Shown one piece after another: positions 1,589-32,000 of a stretch of DNA of 32,000 bases; within the stretch, counting starts at the first letter, position 1; every line of letters begins with the position of its first letter. The stretch is taken from the NCBI RefSeq assembly GCF_000012805.1, contig NC_007484.1, positions 3,090,001 through 3,122,000 on the forward strand, given 5' to 3'. The position numbers were made by a program, and so were the translations under genes. Source of the DNA: Nitrosococcus oceani ATCC 19707. GTDB taxonomy: Bacteria > Pseudomonadota > Gammaproteobacteria > Nitrosococcales > Nitrosococcaceae. The notes beneath the pieces are model-generated. The model did not search any database. It saw only the letters and a program-made list of their open reading frames with translations, and was not told the DNA's origin.

Positions 1589-3237
1589 GCGACTTGCTGA
1601 CTGAGGCCAAGATACGCCCGCCGCGGCGGATAAAGCTCTCGCCAGTCTGGCTGGTCCCCCTCGCAGCTGCACTGATCGGCGCGTGGCTGGTGTATCAGAA
1701 TATTGCATCTCAAGGTCCGGAGATCATATTGCAGCTCGACAACGCCGAAGGTGTGGAAGCTGGTAAAACAGTGGTTAAACTACACAATGTGGATGTGGGA
1801 CTGGTGGAGAAGGTACGCTTGTCCAAGGATTACACGGGAGCCATCGCCGAGGTGCGCATGAAGGCGGATATGGACCCTCTATTGGTGGAGGATACCCAAT
1901 TTTGGGTGGCCAAACCCCGGGTGGGACGGGAAGGTATTAGCGGCCTGAGCACAATCCTCTCTGGCGTCTATATCCAGATGCGCCCAGGCAACGCTCAAGA
2001 CCCAGCCCGCCGGTTCCAGGTGCTAGAACGGCCACCCACGATCCGTATCCACACCGAGGGATTATCGCTGGAGTTAGTCAGTACGGATGATAACTCCTTA
2101 ACCATCGGAGACCCTGTGGTCTATCAAGGCCAGGAAGTGGGTCAGATCGATACCGCAGAATTCAATGCCTCAGCGCTGGAAATGCACTACGGCGTATTTA
2201 TCCGTGCTCCCTTCGATGCGCTGATCACCGAGAATGTCCAGTTCTGGCCACGCTCCGGCATTATCTTTGAGATCACTTCCGAGGGATTGCAGGTACAAAC
2301 AGGCACCCTTGAGACGATGTTGGCGGGGGGTGTCACGTTTGGGATTCCACCGGATCTGAAGGATGGCAAACAAGCTGAACAAGGCGCTATATTTCGACTG
2401 TATCCGTCGCGCCAAGCCGCCCAGCAGGATCGTTACGACCATCAGTACAAGTACGTCATTCTGTTCGATGACTCGGTGCGCGGTTTGTACCCAGGAGCGG
2501 CTGTCGAATTCCGTGGCGTCCGGGTAGGCACGGTACTCAACGTCCCCTTCTTTGGTGACGACTTTGGTATGGAATATTCCCAGACCTTTCGCATCCCAGT
2601 ACTGATCGCCTTCGAACCGCAGCGGCTGGCAGGCACTACCTGGGCGCAATTCGATCAAAAAGCCTGGCAGCAGCATCTGAACCGCTTGTTCCCTAGAGGG
2701 TTGCGGGCCACTATAAAGGCGGCTAATCTGCTCACGGGCGCAATGTTTGTGGATCTCGCTTTCACGGACCAGAAAGGTGCCCACCATGAACCGGCGTTTC
2801 AAGGCCAGTATCCGTTGCTCCCCAGCCGCAGCAGCGGGCTGGCCAGTATCGAGGAAAAGATCACCCGACTATTGGATAAACTCAATGAACTGGAACTCGC
2901 GCCAGTGCTGACTAAGTTGCAACACACCCTAGAAAGCACTAGCGAAGTCATGAATAAGTCCCAAAACACCATGGATCGGCTGAACTCACTTCTCGGCAGC
3001 GAGGCCATGGGCAAGCTCCCTACTGAGTTCAATGCAACCCTAGATGAATTACGGAAGACCCTGAACAGCTATCAGCAGGGAGCGCCCGTCTACGATAAGC
3101 TCAACCGCTCCCTTGACCGGCTGAATCAGGTTCTGGATGATCTCGCCCCCTTCGTGGAAACGCTGCACAATGCTCCTTCAGCACTCTTTTTCGGCGATAA
3201 TGCCCCTGAAGACCCTATTCCCCAAGCTGCCAAATGA
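1585..3237 (+). CDS. pqiB: intermembrane transport protein PqiB (multi-MCE domain)
   Basis: 550 aa with an N-terminal TM anchor (WLVPLAAALIGAWLV), repeated MCE-like segments and a C-terminal coiled-coil-like tail. It sits between pqiA and the lipoprotein gene, with ATGA start/stop overlaps on both sides. Confidence 0.9.
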   Translation: MSDLLTEAKIRPPRRIKLSPVWLVPLAAALIGAWLVYQNIASQGPEIILQLDNAEGVEAGKTVVKLHNVDVGLVEKVRLSKDYTGAIAEVRMKADMDPLLVEDTQFWVAKPRVGREGISGLSTILSGVYIQMRPGNAQDPARRFQVLERPPTIRIHTEGLSLELVSTDDNSLTIGDPVVYQGQEVGQIDTAEFNASALEMHYGVFIRAPFDALITENVQFWPRSGIIFEITSEGLQVQTGTLETMLAGGVTFGIPPDLKDGKQAEQGAIFRLYPSRQAAQQDRYDHQYKYVILFDDSVRGLYPGAAVEFRGVRVGTVLNVPFFGDDFGMEYSQTFRIPVLIAFEPQRLAGTTWAQFDQKAWQQHLNRLFPRGLRATIKAANLLTGAMFVDLAFTDQKGAHHEPAFQGQYPLLPSRSSGLASIEEKITRLLDKLNELELAPVLTKLQHTLESTSEVMNKSQNTMDRLNSLLGSEAMGKLPTEFNATLDELRKTLNSYQQGAPVYDKLNRSLDRLNQVLDDLAPFVETLHNAPSALFFGDNAPEDPIPQAAK

Positions 3238-3869
3238 AGCGCAGCCCCATAATCCTGGTGGCAGTGGCTTTCATTTTAAGCGCCTGCGCCACAACGCCCC
3301 ATCAGCCCTGGCTATATTCGCTTACCACTCCTCCTGCAGGCACGACTCCACCCAGCGAGGCCCGCGTCGCAAGAAAGGCGTTAATCGTGAACCAAATTTA
3401 CGCCGCTGAATTTCTGCAGCACTCGGGCATCGTCTATAAAACCGCGCCCAATCGGTTGAGCGTGGCCCGGCAACACCGCTGGGCCGCTCCCCTGACAGTG
3501 CAACTGCACCAGTATATTTATAATAGGCTAACCACGCAGCTACCCTCTATAGCCGTTTATCCAAATACCAGCAGCGCGCCGCTCAAAGCATGGCAACTTA
3601 CTGTTGAATTCAATAGCTTCCATGGACGCTTTGACGGTAAGGCGGTAGTTGCTGGTAGCTGGCGATTGCGCAATGGAAACGGCGACGTGGTAGCCCAAAG
3701 CTCATTTAAGCAGGACACCCCACTTGCAGAAGATGGTTACGAAGCACTTGTGGCTGCACTTTCTAAAGGCTTGGCTCGGGTCACAGATAGCATCGCTAGC
3801 ACGATCCACGAACTGACACTAGAGCAAGCCGATGAAACTGCCCAAGGGGTAAATATAGACGCACCATAA
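3234..3869 (+). CDS. pqiC: PqiC/YmbA-like ABC-transport auxiliary lipoprotein
   Basis: 211 aa with a lipobox (FILSAC) after a short signal peptide. It is third in the pqiAB cluster and translationally coupled by an ATGA overlap at 3234..3237. Confidence 0.8.
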   Translation: MKRSPIILVAVAFILSACATTPHQPWLYSLTTPPAGTTPPSEARVARKALIVNQIYAAEFLQHSGIVYKTAPNRLSVARQHRWAAPLTVQLHQYIYNRLTTQLPSIAVYPNTSSAPLKAWQLTVEFNSFHGRFDGKAVVAGSWRLRNGNGDVVAQSSFKQDTPLAEDGYEALVAALSKGLARVTDSIASTIHELTLEQADETAQGVNIDAP

Positions 3870-4164
3870 AAAAGCTATCCTGCTTCCTTTTTTCCCATTT
3901 TCCCTTAAGCTTTTAAAGCTAACAGCACCGATAAGTACCTATAAATATGGGGTGCGCCGGCGATGTTCCATAAACCCGCTTTTCCTCCCTGAAAAAGATG
4001 CCTGCCCTCCCTTGCCTTCGCCCCACCAGCGCACTTCTAGGAATACTTCGAGACTTTTATGGAGGTACTTAGATAATTTTGAGCCTCAGTCCTTTTGGCT
4101 CTATACTTTCGTTTGCAAGCAAATTAACTAGCTTTCATATTCTAAAAAATAGTTTGGACAAACC

Positions 4165-4596
4165 ATGATAAATAAAAAACTTTTCCATATCGGTTCCCAG
4201 GCAGTTTTATTTTTCCTGTCCGCCACGCTGACGACTGCAGCCTATGCCTATGGCGGGAGTAGCGCCGCCCAATCAAGCAGCTGTAAAACCGTAAGGATTT
4301 CCGAAGAAAATCCAGCACCCAAGGCAATTATTCCCGAACTATCCAATTTCTCCTTTGTAGCAAGTTCTGATGTGCGGGAATCAAGTATTGCCGTCAAGAT
4401 TCGCGGCCAAGAAGGCGAGCTAACGATCACCCAACAACCCAATAAAAGTTATCTGGTCGAAGGGCATTTTCCTGAACCCATTACTGAGGCGCGGTACGTC
4501 AGGATCGATATCCTGTCAGAATCCGTCCGGGGATGTTCCAGCCATCATCACTACCTGGTACAAGTTGAACCCGAAGGACAATCAGAGGAAGAGTAA
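4165..4596 (+). CDS. hypothetical secreted protein
   Basis: 143-aa ORF with an N-terminal signal-like segment (AVLFFLSATLTTAAYA) and an acidic C-terminus. I recognise no family motif. Confidence 0.5.
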   Translation: MINKKLFHIGSQAVLFFLSATLTTAAYAYGGSSAAQSSSCKTVRISEENPAPKAIIPELSNFSFVASSDVRESSIAVKIRGQEGELTITQQPNKSYLVEGHFPEPITEARYVRIDILSESVRGCSSHHHYLVQVEPEGQSEEE

Positions 4597-10179: not shown

Positions 10180-10626
10180 ATGGCCATTAGACATTATGAG
10201 TCCTTTGACCTACTCAACCAATTGCAAAGAGAAGTCAATCGTCTCTTTGAGGGGAACTCTCCCCAGCATACTCAAACCGAAGCGGAGCTTGCCACGAGCG
10301 ATTGGGTCCCCGCTGTAGATATTAAGGAAGAAGCGGACCGGTTCGTTATTTATGCCGACGTGCCTGGTGTTGAGTCCAAGGATATTGAGGTGACTTTGGA
10401 CAATGGCACCCTCACCCTTAAGGGCCACCGTCAATCCAGTAAAATCCCGGAGCAGCGGGGCTATAAGCGAGTGGAGCGGGTCAGCGGCAGCTTTTTACGG
10501 CGCTTTGCCCTGCCCAATACGGTGGATGCCGCTAAAGTCAGTGCCCGCTCTCAAAACGGTGTCCTTGAACTGGTGATCCCAAAAAGCCAGCAGGCCCAGA
10601 GCCGCAAGATTACGGTGGAAGGATAA
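10180..10626 (+). CDS. Hsp20/alpha-crystallin small heat-shock protein
   Basis: 148 aa. WVPAVDIKEEADRFVIYADVPGV...DIEVTLDNGTLTLKGHR...ERVSGSFLRRFALP...NGVLELVIPK is a canonical alpha-crystallin domain. An AGGAG Shine-Dalgarno sequence lies upstream. Confidence 0.9.
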   Translation: MAIRHYESFDLLNQLQREVNRLFEGNSPQHTQTEAELATSDWVPAVDIKEEADRFVIYADVPGVESKDIEVTLDNGTLTLKGHRQSSKIPEQRGYKRVERVSGSFLRRFALPNTVDAAKVSARSQNGVLELVIPKSQQAQSRKITVEG

Positions 10627-10695
10627 AGCCCAGAAAGCCAATACCAAGGAACCGTTACTATTACGGCAATGATAGTCTCTAAACATTAAGGAGTC

Positions 10696-11202
10696 ATGAC
10701 GATGTCCCCCCTAGAGCAGATCCATAAGGGTGCCTCCCGCGCTTGGGATTACCTTACCGAGGGTTGGCATCACCTGCGGGAAAGAGCGAACCAGGCTCTT
10801 ACCCAATTTACACCGGCAACCCAAGGAGGGCAGCTGGAAACGATGGAAGACCAGGTCATGGAAAATGCTTCCCGCTGGGGGCTATTAGCCGCCGAAATCA
10901 AGGAGGATGATAAAGCCGTGACCGTTCGGTTAGAAGCCCCTGGCATGGAAGCCGGCGATTTTGATATCGAGGTAATGAATAATGCCCTGGTGATCCGAGG
11001 TGAAAAGCGGGTAGAACGGGAGCAAAGTGATGGACGCTACTATGTGATGGAGCGGGCCTATGGGCGCTTTGAGCGAGTCCTGCCACTACCTGCCGAAGTC
11101 ACGGAAAGCGGATCGCAGGCTAAATATCGCCGAGGCGTACTCTGGATTTCCCTGCCAAAAACACGGCAGATAAAACATCGTGTTGAGGTAAAATCCGGCT
11201 AA
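10696..11202 (+). CDS. Hsp20 family small heat-shock protein (second paralogue)
   Basis: 168 aa. VTVRLEAPGMEAGDFDIEVMNNALVIRGEKR...ERAYGRFERVLPLP...RRGVLWISLPK. An AAGGAG Shine-Dalgarno sequence lies just upstream of the ATG. Confidence 0.85.
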   Translation: MTMSPLEQIHKGASRAWDYLTEGWHHLRERANQALTQFTPATQGGQLETMEDQVMENASRWGLLAAEIKEDDKAVTVRLEAPGMEAGDFDIEVMNNALVIRGEKRVEREQSDGRYYVMERAYGRFERVLPLPAEVTESGSQAKYRRGVLWISLPKTRQIKHRVEVKSG

Positions 11203-11382: not shown

Positions 11383-11529
11383 TTAGGAAATATTTTTGAG
11401 CTGATCGTTGACCGCGTGTCTTTGCCCTTTGAGCTTCGATGATTTTTTGAACCCCATCAACCTTGTATGCAGAAGGTTGTCGACCATGGGGATATTACCG
11501 GGCTGCAAAATTGGAGAAGGCTTCAGCAT
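11383..11529 (-). CDS. small 48-codon ORF downstream of the structured RNA; coding status uncertain
   Basis: An AAGGAGAGG Shine-Dalgarno sequence lies 7 nt before the ATG at 11529. The product is MLKPSPILQPGNIPMVDNLLHTRLMGFKKSSKLKGQRHAVNDQLKNIS, with no recognisable family. The longer 101-aa ORF-track version overlaps the RNA terminator and is unlikely. Confidence 0.25.
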   Translation of the reverse strand: MLKPSPILQPGNIPMVDNLLHTRLMGFKKSSKLKGQRHAVNDQLKNIS

Positions 11530-11619
11530 AATGAACCTCTCCTTGGAATTAAACATGGATGTTGAATGACCCCCCAGCGAGAGTGCGAAACAAAGTGGCA
11601 CATCGAGCGCGAGGGCCAC

Positions 11620-11655
11620 ATAAAAATAGGTCCCCGGTGTTGGACCCCACCGGGG
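11620..11655 (-). terminator. intrinsic terminator at the 3' end of the structured RNA
   Basis: The minus strand reads CCCCGGTG-gggtccaa-CACCGGGG, then acc, then TATTTTTAT. This is an 8-bp GC-rich stem plus a U-run. The plus-strand reading has no U-tract. Confidence 0.65.
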
Positions 11656-11935
11656 AAGGGTTGGCTTTCGCCTGCTCTTACGAGCCACCGCTTACGCGGG
11701 TTAAGGTTCCCTCGCTCGGTTATCTCGCGGTTCCTCCCACCCTTGCGGGTCAATCCCTTGAGGGGGCACTGCCCGTTATCCCGGCCCGTGCTGTTTAACC
11801 CCCTGGCGCAGTGTTCGGAGCTGGGAATGCACCCCGAAGTGCCTATCTTTACCGGCTGAGGTAACACAAGCCCGTCAGCCAGAATTCGCGAGTAACGTCT
11901 CCTACCGAAGTAGGGAACTGGTTGAGTCAATGACT
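11620..11935 (-). ncRNA. unclassified highly structured RNA (about 320 nt; the 5' end is not defined)
   Basis: The minus strand carries two C(UUCG)G-type hairpins and five short stems capped by GNRA loops (GCAA, GUAA, GUAA, GAAA). It also has a long-range CTCGCG/CGCGAG helix, a possible pseudoknot and a 3' intrinsic terminator. The stable tetraloops exist only on the minus strand. The ORFs called on both strands here overlap each other and look non-proteinaceous. Confidence 0.6.
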
Positions 11936-12099
11936 GATCATTTAAATACATGGCAGTATGCAAATTTCAGTCAAACCGGGGACTCTACTCATTTCTAAAC
12001 ACCACCGGTTCACAGCAAAATGCCGAGTGATAAGGGGATTACCCCCTCCTAGACAGAGTGATCTATACTAATAAAGTACCCTCAATCCCTGTTAAAGAA

Positions 12100-12822
12100 A
12101 TGATGTCCTCAGACTTGCCTGCCTATAGGGTCCGGGTATCATCCCGGGCACGGCATGTCCGTATTCAGGTCAGCGCTGAGGAAGGCGTGATCGTCGTTTT
12201 ACCTCAAACAGTAGATCCAGCCTCGGTTCCCGCTTTACTCTGGAAAAAAAAGGCCTGGCTAGACCGCACCCTCTCTCAGTTCGAAGGGCTTCAGCACCAA
12301 CCTCCATTGGCTACTCAGGAGACTTCACCTACGCTTATTTGCCTACGCGCTATAAACCAGCAGTTTTATATCACCTACCACAAGGACGCCAACCCCAGCC
12401 TCCATATCCATACCCTGGGCAACCGGCTATTATTGCGGGGCCATGTCACTCATTACTTCCTGGTAAAGCAAACTTTGCAGCGCTGGTTGACGGAACAGGC
12501 CCACCTGCACCTCCCGCCCTGGTTAGAGACCGTAAGCAAAGAAATCAGCCTCAAACACTTCAAGACAATTATTCGAGGCCAACGCACCCGTTGGGCTAGC
12601 TGTTCCCAACGCCAGACCATCAGCTTGAACCATAAGCTGCTATTTTTACCCCCCCATTTGGTGCGCTATGTTTTTCTCCATGAACTCGTTCACTTGGTGC
12701 ACTTTAATCATTCCCCCCGTTTCTGGACTTTGCTGACTCACTTTGAATCTAATTGCCGCAGCCTGGATCAGGAATTGCGCCGCGCCGGACACTATGTCCC
12801 CGCCTGGGCTGAGCGACGCTAG
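12100..12822 (+). CDS. YgjP-like metal-dependent hydrolase (DUF45/M48-related, HExxH)
   Basis: YRVRVSSRARHVRIQV near the N-terminus and HELVHLVHFNHSPRFW near the C-terminus are characteristic of the YgjP/UTP-hydrolase family. I prefer the ATG at 12100 over the GTG at 12058. Confidence 0.8.
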   Translation: MMSSDLPAYRVRVSSRARHVRIQVSAEEGVIVVLPQTVDPASVPALLWKKKAWLDRTLSQFEGLQHQPPLATQETSPTLICLRAINQQFYITYHKDANPSLHIHTLGNRLLLRGHVTHYFLVKQTLQRWLTEQAHLHLPPWLETVSKEISLKHFKTIIRGQRTRWASCSQRQTISLNHKLLFLPPHLVRYVFLHELVHLVHFNHSPRFWTLLTHFESNCRSLDQELRRAGHYVPAWAERR

Positions 12823-22723: not shown

Positions 22724-23080
22724 TCACCGCTTTGTGCCCTCCCGGCGGCCCAAGCTCTCGGCGAGAAAAGACGATACCAAGGCATTCATGCTCACTCCTT
22801 CTTGTTTTGCGCGCGCGGTCAATCGAGCGTGCAAACTGCGCGGAACTCGGGCAATGAACTTTCCGCTAGGTAGATCGCTGGGATTCGGAATCTCGCGCCC
22901 AGATTCCTCTGCGGCTTTGAGCCAAGCCGCCAGCGCATCCTTGCCATTAGCCATGGCTTCTTCAGGCGTTTCACCATCCGACATGCAGCCCGGCAGATCT
23001 GGGTAGCTCACTAGCCATCCACCGCCTTCTTCATCGGCGAGAGGGCGGAACTCAAAAGGATACTCAATATGCTTCTTCAT
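22724..23080 (-). CDS. hicB: HicB-family antitoxin with a C-terminal ribbon-helix-helix
   Basis: 118 aa. It has an N-terminal HicB fold (YPFEFRPLADEEGGGWLVSYPDLPGCMSDGETPEEA) and a C-terminal RHH (ARVPRSLHARLTARAKQEGVSMNALVSSFL). It overlaps hicA by 4 nt. Confidence 0.85.
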   Translation of the reverse strand: MKKHIEYPFEFRPLADEEGGGWLVSYPDLPGCMSDGETPEEAMANGKDALAAWLKAAEESGREIPNPSDLPSGKFIARVPRSLHARLTARAKQEGVSMNALVSSFLAESLGRREGTKR

Positions 23081-24842: not shown

Positions 24843-27325
24843 TTATGGAATTCGATATTGAATCAATAAACCAATAACATTAACTTCAAAATCATTAGGG
24901 GTGGCCATGAGAAAAAGATGGTTATTAATCAATGGATTCAGTCCTTCAAAGTGCCAGTCGCGGATGGTCCCCCGTTCATAGCGGTGTAATAAACGTAACG
25001 CCAAGTTTTTGCTGATGTTCCAGCGCAGATTCGTCTCCAGTATGTGGCGGGTATACCGTAGATCGGGAAAGGAATTGCCAATCGTATCCAAAGCCAATTC
25101 AGGGTTTGCCAGCGCCAGATTTGAGACTGCCTCATAATCGACCTCACTGCGTGACCAATTAAAAGAGTAGTTGCCATCGAAGATAAAGCGATCAAATTGG
25201 TAGTAAAAACCAAACCCAAGGGCAGAGTTAGTTTCATCCACGTTCTCCTGCCAGGCGGCCCTTAAGGGAAAGGTGGCCCCACCTGCATTCGGATCAGTGG
25301 AAAAGCCTGCATCGTTAATATTGGCCATAGCGTTGGTTTTGGTTTGATAACTGCCGAATACATAGGTGCTCAGTTGGGCAGAGGGCTGGTAATTCCATTC
25401 CAGATTGACGGTATTGCTTTCATCCTGAAGAAGGCCGAAACGGGCATCAAAATCGTTGTCAACCCGAGCGAAGGAAAGCGAGAGATCCATATCTTCCCGC
25501 AGCAGCACATTCGCAAGGCCACAGAAAAGGTGTTGTTTCCGGTCACTCAAATCAAATTTACGCAGATCCGCCAGTGTGAAAGGAGTTGTCCCGGCGGGTG
25601 GACGGGAGCTAAATCCGGGCAGAGAATTAGTAAAAAACGACGTATAGGGGTCAAAGCGATAGGGACTGTCCGTACGGTCTGAGAATTCATAGGAAAAGCG
25701 AAACGTAGCCCAGGAAACTGAACGATTAGAGGTGCGGACTATGAACCGATTCTCGGTAGTTTTATCCCGCTCCCGATAGTCCCGATCAATCTCCTCCCGT
25801 TGGTAGCCTAGGCTCAGAACCGTTTTGGGAATGAGACGATAATCGGCGTTAAAGGACCAATTTATCTTGCGCTGGGCAAAGGGAACATTGCGAAAATGAA
25901 AAGGTATGGCCGATTGGTTCGGATTAAAGACAAAGCCACGGCCGGGATCAGCTCCATCCTCCACAATATAGCCAATCTCGCCCGCCAGGGGGTTGAAGGC
26001 CGTATAGTCGGTGTCATTATCTTCATCATAGTAGCGAAAATCCGCTCGCAGGGTGAGAGGATCAAAGGGGATTAGCCTCAAGCCTGTCTGGAATAGCCAG
26101 GTATTGATTTCGGCGTTGGCAGTTTTCCGTCCCAGAGCCGCGGTGGTATTCCAGTTACTCAAGTCAATACCTGCTGCGGATTGGCCCGAGTTGATGGTGG
26201 GGGGGAGCAAGTCATCATCTTGATGCATGCGGGACCAAGCGGCAGTGGAAGTAAACAGTCCCCTGAGGGGGAGTACATAACTGAAATCTAGTTTCACATT
26301 ATGAAAATCGTTATCAGGGTATAGTGCAAAACGGCCTCGCTCAACGGCGAAAGAATCTCCTGGCAGATTTTGGAATGGGTTTTCCCAGCTCAGTGCCTGG
26401 TTATGATTGCGGAAAAAGGAAGCGTTATAAGTAAAATTTAGTTGGTACTGATTGTGTCCATAATTAATACCGGCGAGTAAATTATGGGTTCGGTAGTCAA
26501 TCGGTTCCACTGTTTCCACCACCCCCCCTGCCGTGCCGCCGCATAAAAAGGGGCAAGAAAAGTGCCGCCAAAAGGGCGCCCGCCCGTCCTGTTCTCTTGC
26601 GTATAGCGGGTATACATTCTAAAGCGGGTGCTGGGTGTGATCTCAAACCCCAGCCCTCCTTTGGCCCGGGATAAATCCAGAGAGCGGCGGGAAGCTGATT
26701 CCAATGCGGTGCGAATATCTGCCGTTGAGTTATCGCCGGGGATTAGCCCGGGGGGCAGCAAAAGCTGGTCGCTGCCTACTCCCTCGAATAAGGTGATGGC
26801 ATTGGTTTCGAATACATGGGGGATTTCATTGAAAAACCCCATCAGCTTAAATAAGCCATACTGCCCGCCTTGGGCCAGGTAATATTGATCCTTCCTGTCC
26901 ACTCCGCCCCCCGATAAATCAAGAAAGTAACCGTTATCTTCCCGCCAGGCGGAGAGATTAAAATAATTGAGAAGGGGGCCTTCGCTCCAGTCACTATACT
27001 CGATGAAGTTCTCGGGTGTGTCCCCATCATCGTCCAGGAGAAAACCGCCTTCCAGGCTGCCCCGGTAGCGCCAGGCGTTTATTTTTCCAAATTCCGGCGG
27101 TTTAAAAGGAGGCGCATACAGCAAGCCCGTGGGAGATTGGGAAAAAGTTTCTTTGAAAGTCGCTAAACCCCGTTCATCCCGTCTTTGCGTGGTATCGATC
27201 CCCGTGGGGTTGAGAGTATTGGCAAAGAGGGTATTGACCCCGTTTGCTGAATTCGCTTGGGTAGTCTCGGCTATGGCCAAACATAGCCAAAGAACAAGAA
27301 GCACGCATGGGGCTTTTGATAACAT
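24843..27325 (-). pseudogene. MtrB/PioB-family outer-membrane beta-barrel (porin partner of the decaheme cytochrome), frameshifted
   Basis: The N-terminal ORF (signal MLSKAPCVLLVLWLCLAIAETTQA) and the 559-aa ORF overlap in different frames. The reading switches at the C7 run at 26522..26528 (..AARQGG to VVETVEPIDYRTH..). It is large and rich in Y/F/N/D beta-strand text, ends in ..LIQYRIP, and sits directly downstream of the MtrA-like gene. Confidence 0.75.
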
Positions 27326-27329
27326 CGCC

Positions 27330-28312
27330 TCAGCGATGGAAACGAACCCCCGAGGGATGATTAGAACCATGGATTTGAGCATGACAGTTTTGACAACTTC
27401 GGTTCATCAGCCGTGCATCGGGCCTTAAACCAGCGGGAAGGTTAGTCATGGTCAAGAGATCGTTGGGATGCCCTCGATTGGTATGGCATTGCTGGCATAA
27501 AAAGGGCCGCGCTACCGACAGTAAATTTTCATGGTTGGAGCCATGGGGTAAATGGCAATTTAAGCAGTTTTCCCGAACGGGAGCATGCTCCCAGATAAAC
27601 GGTCCCCGTTTTTCAGCATGGCATTGGTAGCAAACTTGGTTTACCGTATCGGCCTTGAGAAGGGGCGTGGTGTTTGAGCCGTGGGAATTATGGCAATCAA
27701 CACAAGAAAGCTTGCCTTCTAGCAAAGGCATATGGGAGCGTTTGCGAAACTGGACCCGCTGTTGTTGATGGCAGGTAAAGCAAGTTTGGCTGATACTTGC
27801 TTTTTTTAGCAGCCCATCCTGGGAGAACTGCGCCATTGGGTTATGGCAGTCGCTGCATCCGAGATCGTTGACTTGATGGGTGGAGCCTAGCCAGTAAATC
27901 CTCTCTCTGCCCCGGTGACATTGGAGGCACATGGCGTTTTGCTGGAGAATAGAAGACTCGGAGCCCCGGGTAAAAGCCATGATTTTGGATTTGCTGGCAG
28001 GTTCGGCAATATGGTTAGTCCGGGTCCATGGCAGGCTTCACAGCCCTTGGTTTGGAGCGAATTCTGGGGATTAAGATAAAAAACTCTCGCGTGGACAGTG
28101 TGACTCCAATGGCTATTTTCAACTTGGTGGCAGGCTACACACATGCCCTCCCCCACGTAGGTAGCATCAGCCTGCGCTGGGTTACCAAGAGGCGGACTAT
28201 CGGCGGCGGGTAGTGTAGATCGGCAACCGGTCATCAGAGAGAGTATTCCCACTACCGTCAGAAATGCTAACTTCTGCCAAATATTTATATTTAATAGCGT
28301 AATCTTCATCAA
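27330..28312 (-). pseudogene. MtrA/DmsE/MtoA-family periplasmic decaheme c-type cytochrome, frameshifted
   Basis: There are ten CxxCH motifs in total, 2 in the 141-aa ORF and 8 in the 216-aa ORF. The frames switch just after CEACHGPG, around 28015..28025. The alternative frame there reads TNHIAEPASKSKIMAFTRGSE and joins the second ORF. Confidence 0.85.
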
Positions 28313-29233: not shown

Positions 29234-32000
29234 TTAAGAAAAAATCCAGCCGATAATATCACTATAATATAGTTGTTTTCCTTGTTCGAAATTATCCCCG
29301 ATGGATAGGGGCAGCGCGTTAATGGTATGGGAGTCAGTCACACCTCTCCGGGCTAATTGTTCCCGCCATTTTTCATGTAAGGAATCCCGGGAAAGTTCGT
29401 CAGGGGAGAAATAAGATTGCGCAAGGCATGGGTAGTTGCGTTTTTCATGAACTTTATCCTTTACGTTTTTAGCTTTTTTTTCTTTCTTATCAAGATATTT
29501 CCAGACACCGTCGTCTTCCCGATCAAACCAGAGCAAGTTCGGATTTTGATCTTTTCGGAAAGGGCAACACTGACTATGTCTTTGGGTCAATACCATTTGC
29601 GGACGAGCGCCTTCAATAAAAGACATAGCCTGTTTTGACTGCTCGGTACTTTCCAAAAGTCTCTGTAACTGACCATGTTCAAGCTGGCGCATATCGGGAT
29701 AAATATACTGGTTTTTGATTTTCTCAGCTTGAATCAGCGGTTCTTGGAGCGTAAAGCGGGCATCAATACTTTCTTGCAAGCTCTCCAGATCAAATATCTG
29801 CGCTAATGTCTCGGCCCTGTCAGATAGTTTAAAGTGCTTAGACTCCGGCCCGGGTTTGGTAAAGCGCATGGGTTGCTTATTTAAGCCCCGCATGGTTTGG
29901 CTCATTATCCGCATGTTGGGTTGACGGGCTTCCCAATGTCGCCGTTGCCGCCAAATGCGCCCGGCCATTTGAATCAAGGACCAGTAAGAATTGGGTTCGA
30001 CAATTCCCCAGTCATAGTCGTGATCCCGTCCCACTTCCGATATGGGAGAGGTGCTCACAATAACCAGTAAGTGAGTTTTTCCCTGTTGCCGACAATTTTC
30101 TAAATGGGCGCGCAAAGTTGGATGATCATGCGCTTGCCGCCCTTCTTTACGCTTCAAAAGAGTATTTAATGTTTGTTCAATGTGATGGCGGATGAGCGGT
30201 AAATGTTTGGCATGGTAGCAAATCAGCTTTACCTGAATATCATCTAAATTAGCAGGCATATTAAGCCAGTGCTTAGCAAATCCGCAGGTATGGGCAACAT
30301 TGCTCCAGCGAACGCAGCCGATGGAATAGCGAACGCCGCTTTCCGGATCGTGGCTCGCCCACTGTTGATGCAATTCCCTGCAACTCTCCATTATGTTTTG
30401 ATAAACTGCTGCCGGTCCTTCAGCAATGGGTATGAGAACGGTATCCAACCGCCGCCGCGCGGGTTGTTGCTGTAGCGTATTCAACAGGGCCTGGATAAAT
30501 CGATCATGTTGCTTGGTAAAAGCAGCATGATCAGCGACAGAGGCTAATTTGATATGGGCGGCATGATGGCTGAACCAACCGCAGCGGATAGGACCCGATT
30601 CCATGCCTTGAAGTTGCCGCCAACGATTAAAGCCGGTTTGGTAGGCGCGGTAGAAAGCGCGTGCGGTGGCCGGTGGCAAGGTAGCGGAAGAAAGCAGCAA
30701 TTTCCGCCCGTTGAAACCCACCACATAGGCAAGTTTTAATAATGCGGGCAAATCCTCGGCGGAAAAGCTGTCGATTTCGTCAATAATCAAGTCTGATCCC
30801 GCCATGCGAAAACCCAGGACGGCCGCTGATGCCCGCTGGCTTTGCAGAAACGGCATCAAGTGATCGATAGTGCAGACCAGAACAGGAACTTGTAACAGGT
30901 GATTAAGTTTGGGATTATTGGGCGCGATTATATCTTCCGGCCAGGGGGCGTCAGGATCGTAATCGAAATCAAATTCGCCGGTGATTCCTTCATACAGGGA
31001 GTCGTCCAGGGCGCTGCTTTCAACGCCGGCCTGTTCTTCCTGGGAAAACAGGTGGTTTCCTTTTTCGGCGCCTGCCTCTTCCCCAGCATTCGCCATCTCA
31101 TGAAGGGCGGTCGTTAAAGCGCCACCCACCATGATCGCGCATTGATCCCCTACGGCATCAGGCATCTTGCCAAACCCCAAATCATCACGGTATTCATCGC
31201 CAGTTTGCAAGGTCAAGGTGCGCAGTCCCAAAGCAACTGTTAACCGATAATTTTGATGGCGGTTAGCGGCAGCCAGAATGCGGGCGTTACCCCGCGTTTT
31301 GCCAGAGCCGGTTTCGGCCATCACGAGCGCGAAAAAGCCTTCCTTGGCGTTATCTTCTTGCCGTTGGATTTGGAGCACTTTGCGTTCGGCTTTTTGCTGC
31401 CAGCTAAAGGCTTCTTCTTTAATTGGAACGGTCAGGGCGGGGGGAGAGGTTTCAATGGTGCTGGCTTTACGATTATGCTGAAGTTGATGCAGCTGGTTGA
31501 AGGCTTTTCCCGAAAGTTTGCCGACTCGTTCCAAATGGGCGGCCAGCGTTTGTCGTAATTGCCCTTGTTGGCTGTTGGCGAAACAAACCTGCGCCTGGGC
31601 TGATTGGGATGGGACGGGGAGTTCCCTTTTCGCCTGGCTGGAAATGCTGTGATCCGCCAAAACGAGGGCGCAGCGAGCCATATAGCGGGCAGCGCTATAC
31701 CAAAGCACGCGATCCCGGATAGGAAGCGCGTGTTCCTGTAAGAGGTAACGGGCACGCCGGGCATGTTTGGTAATCTCATTGACCCATCTTGGCGACTGTG
31801 ACCAGGCGGGACGATAATCCGTGGCTAGCCGTAGCCCATCCTGCAATTCCTGAGATCTGTTAAGGTAGGTTTCCTCCAGCGGCGCAAAGCTATCTTCATG
31901 TCCGTCCGGTAATTTATGATGAGATATGATCAAAAAACAGAGCACGCTTAGCAAAGGCGCTAAACCCCGATCACCTTCTGCCGAACTCCATTGTGGGCGT
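29234..32000 (-). CDS. cas3: CRISPR-associated Cas3 HD-nuclease/SF2 helicase (large, type I-F-like), 5' end beyond the window
   Basis: The frame is open to the window edge (the ORF-track M is an internal TTG). The HD-domain tail is IISHHKLPDG...ALVLADHSISS. Helicase motif I is AETGSGKT, motif II is IIDEIDSF, motif III is SSATLP, and motifs V/VI are VSTSPISEVGRDHDYDW...LIQMAGRIWR. A long C-terminal domain follows. Confidence 0.85.
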   Translation of the reverse strand, partial: RPQWSSAEGDRGLAPLLSVLCFLIISHHKLPDGHEDSFAPLEETYLNRSQELQDGLRLATDYRPAWSQSPRWVNEITKHARRARYLLQEHALPIRDRVLWYSAARYMARCALVLADHSISSQAKRELPVPSQSAQAQVCFANSQQGQLRQTLAAHLERVGKLSGKAFNQLHQLQHNRKASTIETSPPALTVPIKEEAFSWQQKAERKVLQIQRQEDNAKEGFFALVMAETGSGKTRGNARILAAANRHQNYRLTVALGLRTLTLQTGDEYRDDLGFGKMPDAVGDQCAIMVGGALTTALHEMANAGEEAGAEKGNHLFSQEEQAGVESSALDDSLYEGITGEFDFDYDPDAPWPEDIIAPNNPKLNHLLQVPVLVCTIDHLMPFLQSQRASAAVLGFRMAGSDLIIDEIDSFSAEDLPALLKLAYVVGFNGRKLLLSSATLPPATARAFYRAYQTGFNRWRQLQGMESGPIRCGWFSHHAAHIKLASVADHAAFTKQHDRFIQALLNTLQQQPARRRLDTVLIPIAEGPAAVYQNIMESCRELHQQWASHDPESGVRYSIGCVRWSNVAHTCGFAKHWLNMPANLDDIQVKLICYHAKHLPLIRHHIEQTLNTLLKRKEGRQAHDHPTLRAHLENCRQQGKTHLLVIVSTSPISEVGRDHDYDWGIVEPNSYWSLIQMAGRIWRQRRHWEARQPNMRIMSQTMRGLNKQPMRFTKPGPESKHFKLSDRAETLAQIFDLESLQESIDARFTLQEPLIQAEKIKNQYIYPDMRQLEHGQLQRLLESTEQSKQAMSFIEGARPQMVLTQRHSQCCPFRKDQNPNLLWFDREDDGVWKYLDKKEKKAKNVKDKVHEKRNYPCLAQSYFSPDELSRDSLHEKWREQLARRGVTDSHTINALPLSIGDNFEQGKQLYYSDIIGWIFS

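Follow-up and report, generated by a model that had tools for sequence, protein, structure and literature searches.

The spacer between the hsp20 and ygjP-like genes of Nitrosococcus oceani ATCC 19707 raises the question of what kind of RNA, if any, is encoded there. The stretch analysed, referred to as the window, comprises 32,000 nucleotides (nt) of contig NC_007484.1 (positions 3,090,001 to 3,122,000; RefSeq assembly GCF_000012805.1), and all coordinates given here are counted from its first letter. A first-pass annotation made from the letters alone had described a tetraloop-rich structured RNA of about 320 nt on the minus strand at 11935..11620, with its own terminator, and had left it unassigned. 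This RNA is almost certainly a diverged homologue, by sequence and structure, of HEARO, the RNA now called the omega-RNA of the transposon nuclease IscB, and it is an addition to the known HEARO/omega-RNA family and not a new RNA class. The explanation favoured here, with a probability of roughly 0.6, is that it is an IscB-type omega-RNA carried on a protein-less ISC derivative (IS200/IS605 superfamily) of approximately 450 base pairs (bp), which is repeated in N. oceani.

Relationship to the HEARO family

Rfam was searched with approximately 1 kb around the RNA, at gathering cut-offs first and then with reporting by E-value, and also with the whole 32 kb. No match was found in the window at the gathering thresholds. 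With E-value reporting, the full length of the HEARO model (RF02033, model positions 1-211) aligned with the minus strand at 11988..11700, with a score of 54.4 bits and an E-value of 4.5e-10 for the 1 kb searched, and HEARO was the sole Rfam match across the whole 32 kb (E 1.4e-08). A DNA pattern led to two metagenomic relatives, L073 and L074, which score 109 bits, above the HEARO gathering score, and each of these RNAs is directly followed by a complete IscB open reading frame (ORF) with PLMP, RuvC and HNH motifs. Over an 86-nt core, L073 and the window are 80 % identical. A covariance model, R1, was built from three IscB-linked omega-RNAs of the L073/L074 clade and matched the window at 11990..11675 with 97.6 bits (E 2.5e-28) and nowhere else. 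The alignment of the window produced by R1 itself is wrong around the ACGUUA motif because of the 39-nt insertion in the window, and therefore the Rfam alignment and a MAFFT alignment from which two insertions had been removed were used instead. The HEARO motifs ACGUUA, UUAAACAG, CAGUGC, AUAAC and CGAGG were all found at the aligned positions in the window. Minimum free energy folding of 11960..11610 gave only a modest difference from shuffled sequences (z = -2.05), and because folding energy alone is too weak to carry the claim, the case rests on homology. A significant match to a known family had been named in the first-pass annotation as the finding that would make the RNA known, and the HEARO and R1 matches end its unassigned status. 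The same matches, together with the terminator stem, bear out its description as a structured non-coding RNA that is read from the minus strand and ends in an intrinsic terminator of its own, and a script check found all of the motif strings originally listed at their minus-strand coordinates.

A test of pairing and covariation was run on a MAFFT alignment of 11 sequences, namely the window core with the two Rfam-defined insertions removed, the three IscB-linked RNAs and seven viral HEAROs, and it supported the HEARO helices. Paired cells made up 90.5 % of the HEARO fold, compared with 70.5 % after shuffling, and none of 500 shuffles reached the observed value. Compensatory changes, with both sides altered, occurred in 25 of the 37 HEARO pairs, and pairing fell to 35-47 % when the 3' partners were slid as a control. 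The pairs of the nexus stem (10/10), P4 (8/8) and P5 (6/6) are all formed in the window. The 5' strand of the nexus stem, GUUA-CUCGCG, lies with the ACGUUA motif at 11898..11887 and pairs with CGCGAG-A-UAAC at 11729..11719. The CUCGCG/CGCGAG pairing of the window is replaced by GGGGUG/CACCCC, AGAGAG/CUCUCU and CCCAGG/CCUGGG in relatives, and the long-range helix recognised at the outset stands as this covarying stem. Stem-loop P4 (11843..11808) is made up of GC...GC closing pairs and an 8-bp stem of UUCGGGGU (11838..11831) and GCUCCGAA (11821..11814), in which 5 of 8 pairs show compensatory changes. P5 is a helix of AGGGGG (11804..11799) and CCCCCU (11766..11761) with compensatory changes within the family in all six pairs; it encloses the conserved UUAAACAG, a hairpin CCG-GGAUAA-CGG, and CAGUGC.

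Outside these stems, the hairpin CCUAC-UUCG-GUAGG (11914..11901) occupies the same place as a HEARO hairpin and is retained from the first-pass annotation as HEARO P2. Terminal hairpin 1 (TH1), CCGC-GUAA-GCGG at 11699..11688, lies beyond the end of the Rfam model; covarying counterparts were present in IscB-linked and viral HEAROs (CGGC-GCAA-GCCG, AGCC-GAAA-GGCU and CGCC-UUCG-GGCG), and this first of the originally listed GNRA hairpins holds. The 5' strand of a pseudoknot, GUUCC (11918..11914), is in the same place as the HEARO pseudoknot strand. In the Rfam register it would pair with CGAGC (11718..11714) as GUUC/GAGC, with 4 of 5 pairs formed and one compensatory change from C-G to U-A. The pseudoknot is formed in 68.9 % of cells family-wide, which is moderate support, and an alternative 6-bp pairing, GUUCCC/GGGAAC, is possible in the window. 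With this moderate support, the family pseudoknot appears compatible with the window sequence.

Other pairings proposed earlier gave way to the HEARO fold. The UUCG of a supposed GCAC-UUCG hairpin (11838..11835) is not a tetraloop but part of the 5' half of the P4 stem, and the hairpin showed no covariation. A possible H-type pseudoknot is not supported either: its GGGGG/CCCCC helix belongs to the nested helix P5, and its CACUGC/GCAGUG helix lacks compensatory changes. Taken together, the GCAC-UUCG and CACUGC/GCAGUG pairings were formed in 70.0 % of cells, against 70.2 % after shuffling. A GGGAA/UUCCC helix proposed to enclose the GNRA hairpins, with a conceivable switch, is likewise not supported, GGGAA being part of a conserved omega-RNA linker for which the IscB-linked relatives have no downstream partner.

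Extent, copies and parts of the element

The window locus is 100 % identical to that of N. oceani AFC27. Another N. oceani draft genome supplied a second copy, the 394-bp contig L071, which came to light in a protein search with the spurious 146-amino-acid (aa) ORF that overlaps the RNA. It is approximately 95 % identical to window 11911..11541 and then continues into unrelated sequence. Because this identity ends at 11541 and the flank differs, L071 represents a separate locus that shares the ORF-less architecture and the 3' boundary, and because at least two genomic copies share these features in different flanks, the ORF-less form itself was copied. Both of the point differences between L071 and the window that fall in stems yield G-U pairs, and all others are in loops or linkers. 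A third and much more diverged copy, P0002, is available only as a catalogued "protein"; its collinearity with the window extends over 11870..11536 and takes in the third terminal hairpin (TH3), the terminator and the tail. Assembly behaviour is also informative. Contigs of four independent Logan assemblies all end at window position 11572, which by k-mer arithmetic (k=31) would place the start of the repeat at approximately 11543, and one draft at NCBI breaks between 11787 and 11875. Breaks in five assemblies are the behaviour expected of a repeat, and the locus is probably a non-autonomous, repeated mini-element.

Wider searches for copies gave little. A DNA pattern scan of a genome collection, which apparently lacks the source genome, returned nothing, and a 20-mer gave only a chance match in an Anaerolineales metagenome-assembled genome. 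The first pattern scan of viral contigs yielded 69 loci, none of them similar to the element by blastn, although seven sites in six of these loci are distant HEAROs; a second, more specific viral scan and a blastn search of plasmids for the element gave no match.

The whole ORF-less element spans approximately 450 bp of the minus strand (11990..11541) and consists of scaffold, terminal hairpins, terminator and tail. Its 5' limit is GAGUAGAGUC at 11990, the IscB-linked relatives all starting with GAGUUGAGUC, and its 3' limit is the position at which identity with L071 stops (11541). The start of the RNA, originally set at 11935, is therefore corrected to approximately 11990, about 55 nt further 5', and takes in the P1/guide-adaptor hairpin domain (11988..11921). 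In this domain GUAGAGUC (11988..11981) pairs with GACUCAAC (11928..11921), 7 of 8 pairs being standard in the Rfam alignment, and encloses an inner stem of GACUGA (11972..11967) and UCAGUC (11937..11932). The corresponding strands in relatives are GUUGAGUC/GGCUCAAC, and the inner stem there is GACAAG/CUUGUC or GCUGA/UCAGC. The guide of an IscB omega-RNA is located directly 5' of the scaffold, beyond the end of the transposon (Meers 2023; Kato 2022, PMC9640706). By analogy with this layout, the presumed guide would be the flanking DNA ...CCGGUGGUGUUUAGAAAU at 12008..11991 on the minus strand.

Two hairpins within the scaffold, GGCUGA-15 nt-UCAGCC (11880..11854) and ACCC-GCAA-GGGU (11750..11739), had already been listed in the first-pass annotation and are real or plausible as lineage-specific insertions: both are insertions relative to the Rfam model and both are missing from the IscB-linked relatives L082, L083 and L084. 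In L071 the former keeps its stems and is altered only in its loop, and the latter is identical; ACCC-GCAA-GGGU is also kept in P0002 at the translation level. Towards the 3' end, the nexus strand CGCGAG-A-UAAC, the pseudoknot strand CGAGC and the conserved linker GAGGGAACCUUAAC together occupy 11729..11700.

The 3' module sets the window apart from its IscB-linked relatives, in which the iscB ribosome-binding site and ATG come within 12-25 nt after the one terminal hairpin. In the window, TH1 is followed by two more GNRA hairpins (GCUC-GUAA-GAGC at 11685..11674 and GGC-GAAA-GCC at 11672..11663), a strong intrinsic terminator (11656..11620) and an 80-nt tail (11619..11541). The terminator, recognised from the start as closing the RNA, is made up of a 9-bp stem with 7 G-C pairs (11656..11631), an 8-nt loop and the U-run CCUAUUUUUA. 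It is kept in L071 with one loop substitution and is recognisable in P0002. In L071 both TH1 and the second terminal hairpin are replaced by one AGCC-UUCG-GGCU hairpin, and GGC-GAAA-GCC is retained. The tail ends ...UUAAUUCCAAGG, is common to L071 down to 11541, and is possibly the other transposon end. Both copies end ...UUCCAAGG, and from these two copies only, AAGG could be a shared target motif.

Comparison with known systems and alternative explanations

The window RNA agrees with HEARO (RF02033) in its full-length collinear match and in its motifs, with P1, nexus, P4, P5 and the pseudoknot strands in their expected places, and differs in its score below the gathering value, its two inserted hairpins and the other inner P1 hairpin, and in having its own intrinsic terminator and no iscB ORF following it. 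Weinberg and colleagues reportedly described ORF-less HEARO copies in 2009. The order of parts is also that of the OgeuIscB omega-RNA seen by cryo-electron microscopy (Kato et al. 2022, PMC9640706), from guide, guide-adaptor hairpin, nexus stem and central stems to a pseudoknot strand immediately 3' of the nexus stem, linker and terminal hairpins, when the two are compared by module layout and not by sequence. The pseudoknot of OgeuIscB omega-RNA is formed by a hairpin loop, whereas the window and Rfam use the segment between P1 and P2, and there are two terminal hairpins compared with three in the window. The terminal hairpins of omega-RNA are bound by the PLMP domain of IscB (PMC9640706), and TH1 of the window is the predicted counterpart of these bound hairpins.

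Protein-less elements of a similar kind have been described. ORF-less, PATE-like IS200/IS605 elements encode omega-RNAs and are acted on in trans, the type of omega-RNA not being stated (Meers et al. 2023, doi 10.1101/2023.03.14.532601). Like these, the window element is short, protein-less and repeated, encodes a guide RNA only, and would need its nuclease in trans. The PATE-like elements are presumably of the TnpB type, with the RNA at the other transposon end, whereas the window element is of the IscB type. N. halophilus Nc4 carries four copies of a full-length IscB transposon, ISC2-1_NH (Kapitonov et al. 2016, PMC4810608). This transposon belongs to the same genus and transposon superfamily as the window element but encodes IscB, and it is likely the kind of full-length parent or helper involved.

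If the favoured reading is correct, a TnpA-type Y1 transposase acting in trans would move the element, as happens with PATE-like elements. The RNA would be transcribed from the flank through a guide of approximately 16-20 nt (12008..11991), would stop at its own terminator, and could be taken up in trans by the IscB of a full-length element elsewhere. The guided IscB may then cut the element's own empty site, which would favour retention or homing of the element; the empty hsp20-ygjP spacer would read ...GUUUAGAAAU joined directly to (AAGG)AGAGGUUCAUUAUG. That the RNA is at present functional in trans with an IscB is conceivable, but our confidence in this part falls clearly short of even. Still more tentative is the idea of a selfish element in the IscB branch that is "guide-only" and borrows both TnpA and IscB from full-length elements, or of an exapted, stand-alone guide or small RNA that acts in trans. 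The ORF-less architecture of two N. oceani loci and a diverged copy, with helices intact, fits this idea, under which the lineage-specific hairpins and the terminator would have arisen as adaptations to the absence of an IscB in cis.

A number of observations weigh against the favoured reading. The HEARO score of 54.4 bits is below the RF02033 gathering score of 83, a shortfall attributable in the model alignment to 61 nt of insertions, to the divergent inner hairpin of P1 and to a nexus stem that is out of register by 1 nt, and the conserved UUAAACAG is changed to UUAAAUAG in L071. A search of the minus strand upstream of the RNA gave no sigma-70-like promoter, and the best 120 IscB matches listed included none from Nitrosococcus. 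Similarly, tblastn of IscB against plasmids matched 91 records, with no Nitrosococcus among the matches listed. The subterminal hairpins are weak, DNA folds of the two ends giving z-values of -0.9 to -2.4 against shuffled sequences. The terminator and tail have no similarity to sequence 3' of iscB in L082-84 and three plasmid IscB loci, and because they are unlike the 3' ends of these elements, an origin by internal deletion is no more than a possibility. Only two DNA copies were recovered, which leaves the copy number, the exact ends and the target motif provisional, and no empty site was obtained, exact-protein look-ups giving only N. oceani strains that carry the element.

Several of these points are also what an inert relic would show, that is, a decaying remnant of IscB elements since lost from N. 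oceani, whose transcription would serve no purpose any more, whose RNA no nuclease would use and whose copies would persist only because they are young. This is possible, though we consider it unlikely. The lack of an IscB in the 32 kb and of a Nitrosococcus IscB among the best 120 matches, the lack of an upstream promoter-like site, the sub-threshold score with inner P1 hairpins off consensus, and the substitution in UUAAACAG of L071 are all on its side. Against decay, however, all core helices are intact in the window, the differences between copies avoid breaking pairs, the strong terminator and the order of modules are kept in the much more diverged P0002, and the ORF-less form was copied to a second locus. 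The architecture retained in P0002, together with the own terminator that IscB-linked relatives lack and the insertion hairpins conserved between copies, could alternatively point to a domesticated, IscB-independent small RNA. It would be either a regulator or, in the manner of the TnpB-derived TldR systems, a guide for a nuclease-dead partner resembling IscB/IsrB, with the extra hairpins and the terminator as adaptations. That would be improbable, since no partner gene is nearby, multiple copies in different flanks fit a mobile element better than a host gene, and there is no evidence for syntenic conservation in other species.

The remaining explanations concern the identity of the RNA and the ORFs around it. 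A novel RNA class, or a riboswitch or leader of the downstream 48-codon ORF, draws on the empty Rfam search at gathering thresholds, on the many tetraloop hairpins and on the strong Shine-Dalgarno sequence of that ORF, but it is very improbable given the full-length HEARO and R1 matches and covariation that favours the HEARO fold over the alternative pairings. The 48-codon ORF (11529..11383, minus strand; a hypothetical protein in the annotation of N. oceani AFC27), which the first-pass annotation had noted downstream of the RNA, lies outside the repeated element, is separated from the RNA by the strong terminator and approximately 90 nt, and has no counterpart in the unrelated downstream flank of L071. 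Its ribosome-binding site, AAGGAGAGG, spans the 3' junction of the element, with CCAAGG contributed by the element and AGAGG by the flank. The 48-aa product was also considered as a remnant of the PLMP-containing N-terminus of IscB (GNIPMV compared with GKPLMP) and was rejected, there being no Pfam match and the ORF lying outside the repeat; BLASTP against IscB aligned it with an unrelated internal stretch alone (E 0.06).

No protein-coding gene was found inside the element. In tblastn searches of the 32-kb window with six IscBs nothing was better than E 0.27, and neither a transposase nor an IscB was among the larger ORFs of the window, whereas L073/L082, L083, L084, L074 and L089-L091 all have iscB directly downstream of the RNA. 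The 146-aa minus-strand ORF, or the 97- and 79-aa plus-strand ORFs, might be taken as real genes, since they exist as reading frames and fragments of them are annotated as hypothetical proteins in draft genomes, but there is hardly any likelihood of this. The sole homologues of the 146-aa ORF are translations of other copies of the element, aligning by frame hops. P0002 aligns only by switching all three frames in succession, a signature of non-coding conservation and therefore evidence against a coding function. The plus-strand spurious ORF gave no matches as a protein query, and exact look-up of an annotated 38-aa spurious ORF returned the same locus only. The earlier dismissal of the overlapping ORFs as noise is upheld.

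Genomic surroundings and implications

The element is flanked by two tandem hsp20 genes on the plus strand (10180..11202), the second of which is called with 168 aa or 166 aa depending on the assembly, and by the ygjP-like gene on the plus strand (12058..12822), whose start likewise differs by assembly (254 aa from a GTG at 12058, or 240 aa). Near the element, promoter-like sites occur on the plus strand alone, at 12050..12077 and 12115..12142, which places the element approximately 60 nt from the likely ygjP promoter. Between approximately 16000 and 23100, small toxin-antitoxin-like genes (a HicB-like antitoxin at 22724..23080, HTH/MqsA-like and PhdYeFM-like genes) occur together with AAA ATPases, and this cluster looks like an accessory island downstream of conserved genes. 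An MtrB/PioB outer-membrane porin is split between overlapping minus-strand ORFs at 24843..26522 and 26438..27382 (profile positions 162-634 and 6-146, respectively), which may be a frameshift or pseudogene, and is adjoined by a multihaem cytochrome with paired CXXCH motifs (27330..27980). A 906-aa protein on the minus strand (29234..31954) combines a DEAD-box helicase region with a Cas3-like domain at its C-terminus.

Among the relatives, the 3.8-kb metagenomic contig that carries the HEARO and IscB of L074 also contains a match to a group II intron domain (RF00029, 44.2 bits; L074:57-157, minus strand). The closest IscB-linked relatives, L083 and L084/L085 (IscB at 3001..4287), are located among phage-like genes (a Gp3-like protein and a DnaB helicase), in agreement with reports of many HEARO/IscB systems borne by viruses or prophages.

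With its assignment to the HEARO/omega-RNA family, an apparent "novel RNA" is removed from the annotation. The HEARO gathering threshold misses diverged omega-RNAs that carry insertions, and orphan omega-RNAs are therefore probably under-annotated in genomes. An ORF-less, self-terminated arrangement of the IscB type is a modest extension of the PATE-like omega-RNA elements in the literature and not a surprise. If the favoured explanation is true, an omega-RNA that has lost its nuclease, has acquired a terminator and yet has been copied would show guide and nuclease uncoupled in a natural OMEGA system, and would bear on the origin of trans-acting guide RNAs (tracrRNA/crRNA-like) from transposon RNAs.

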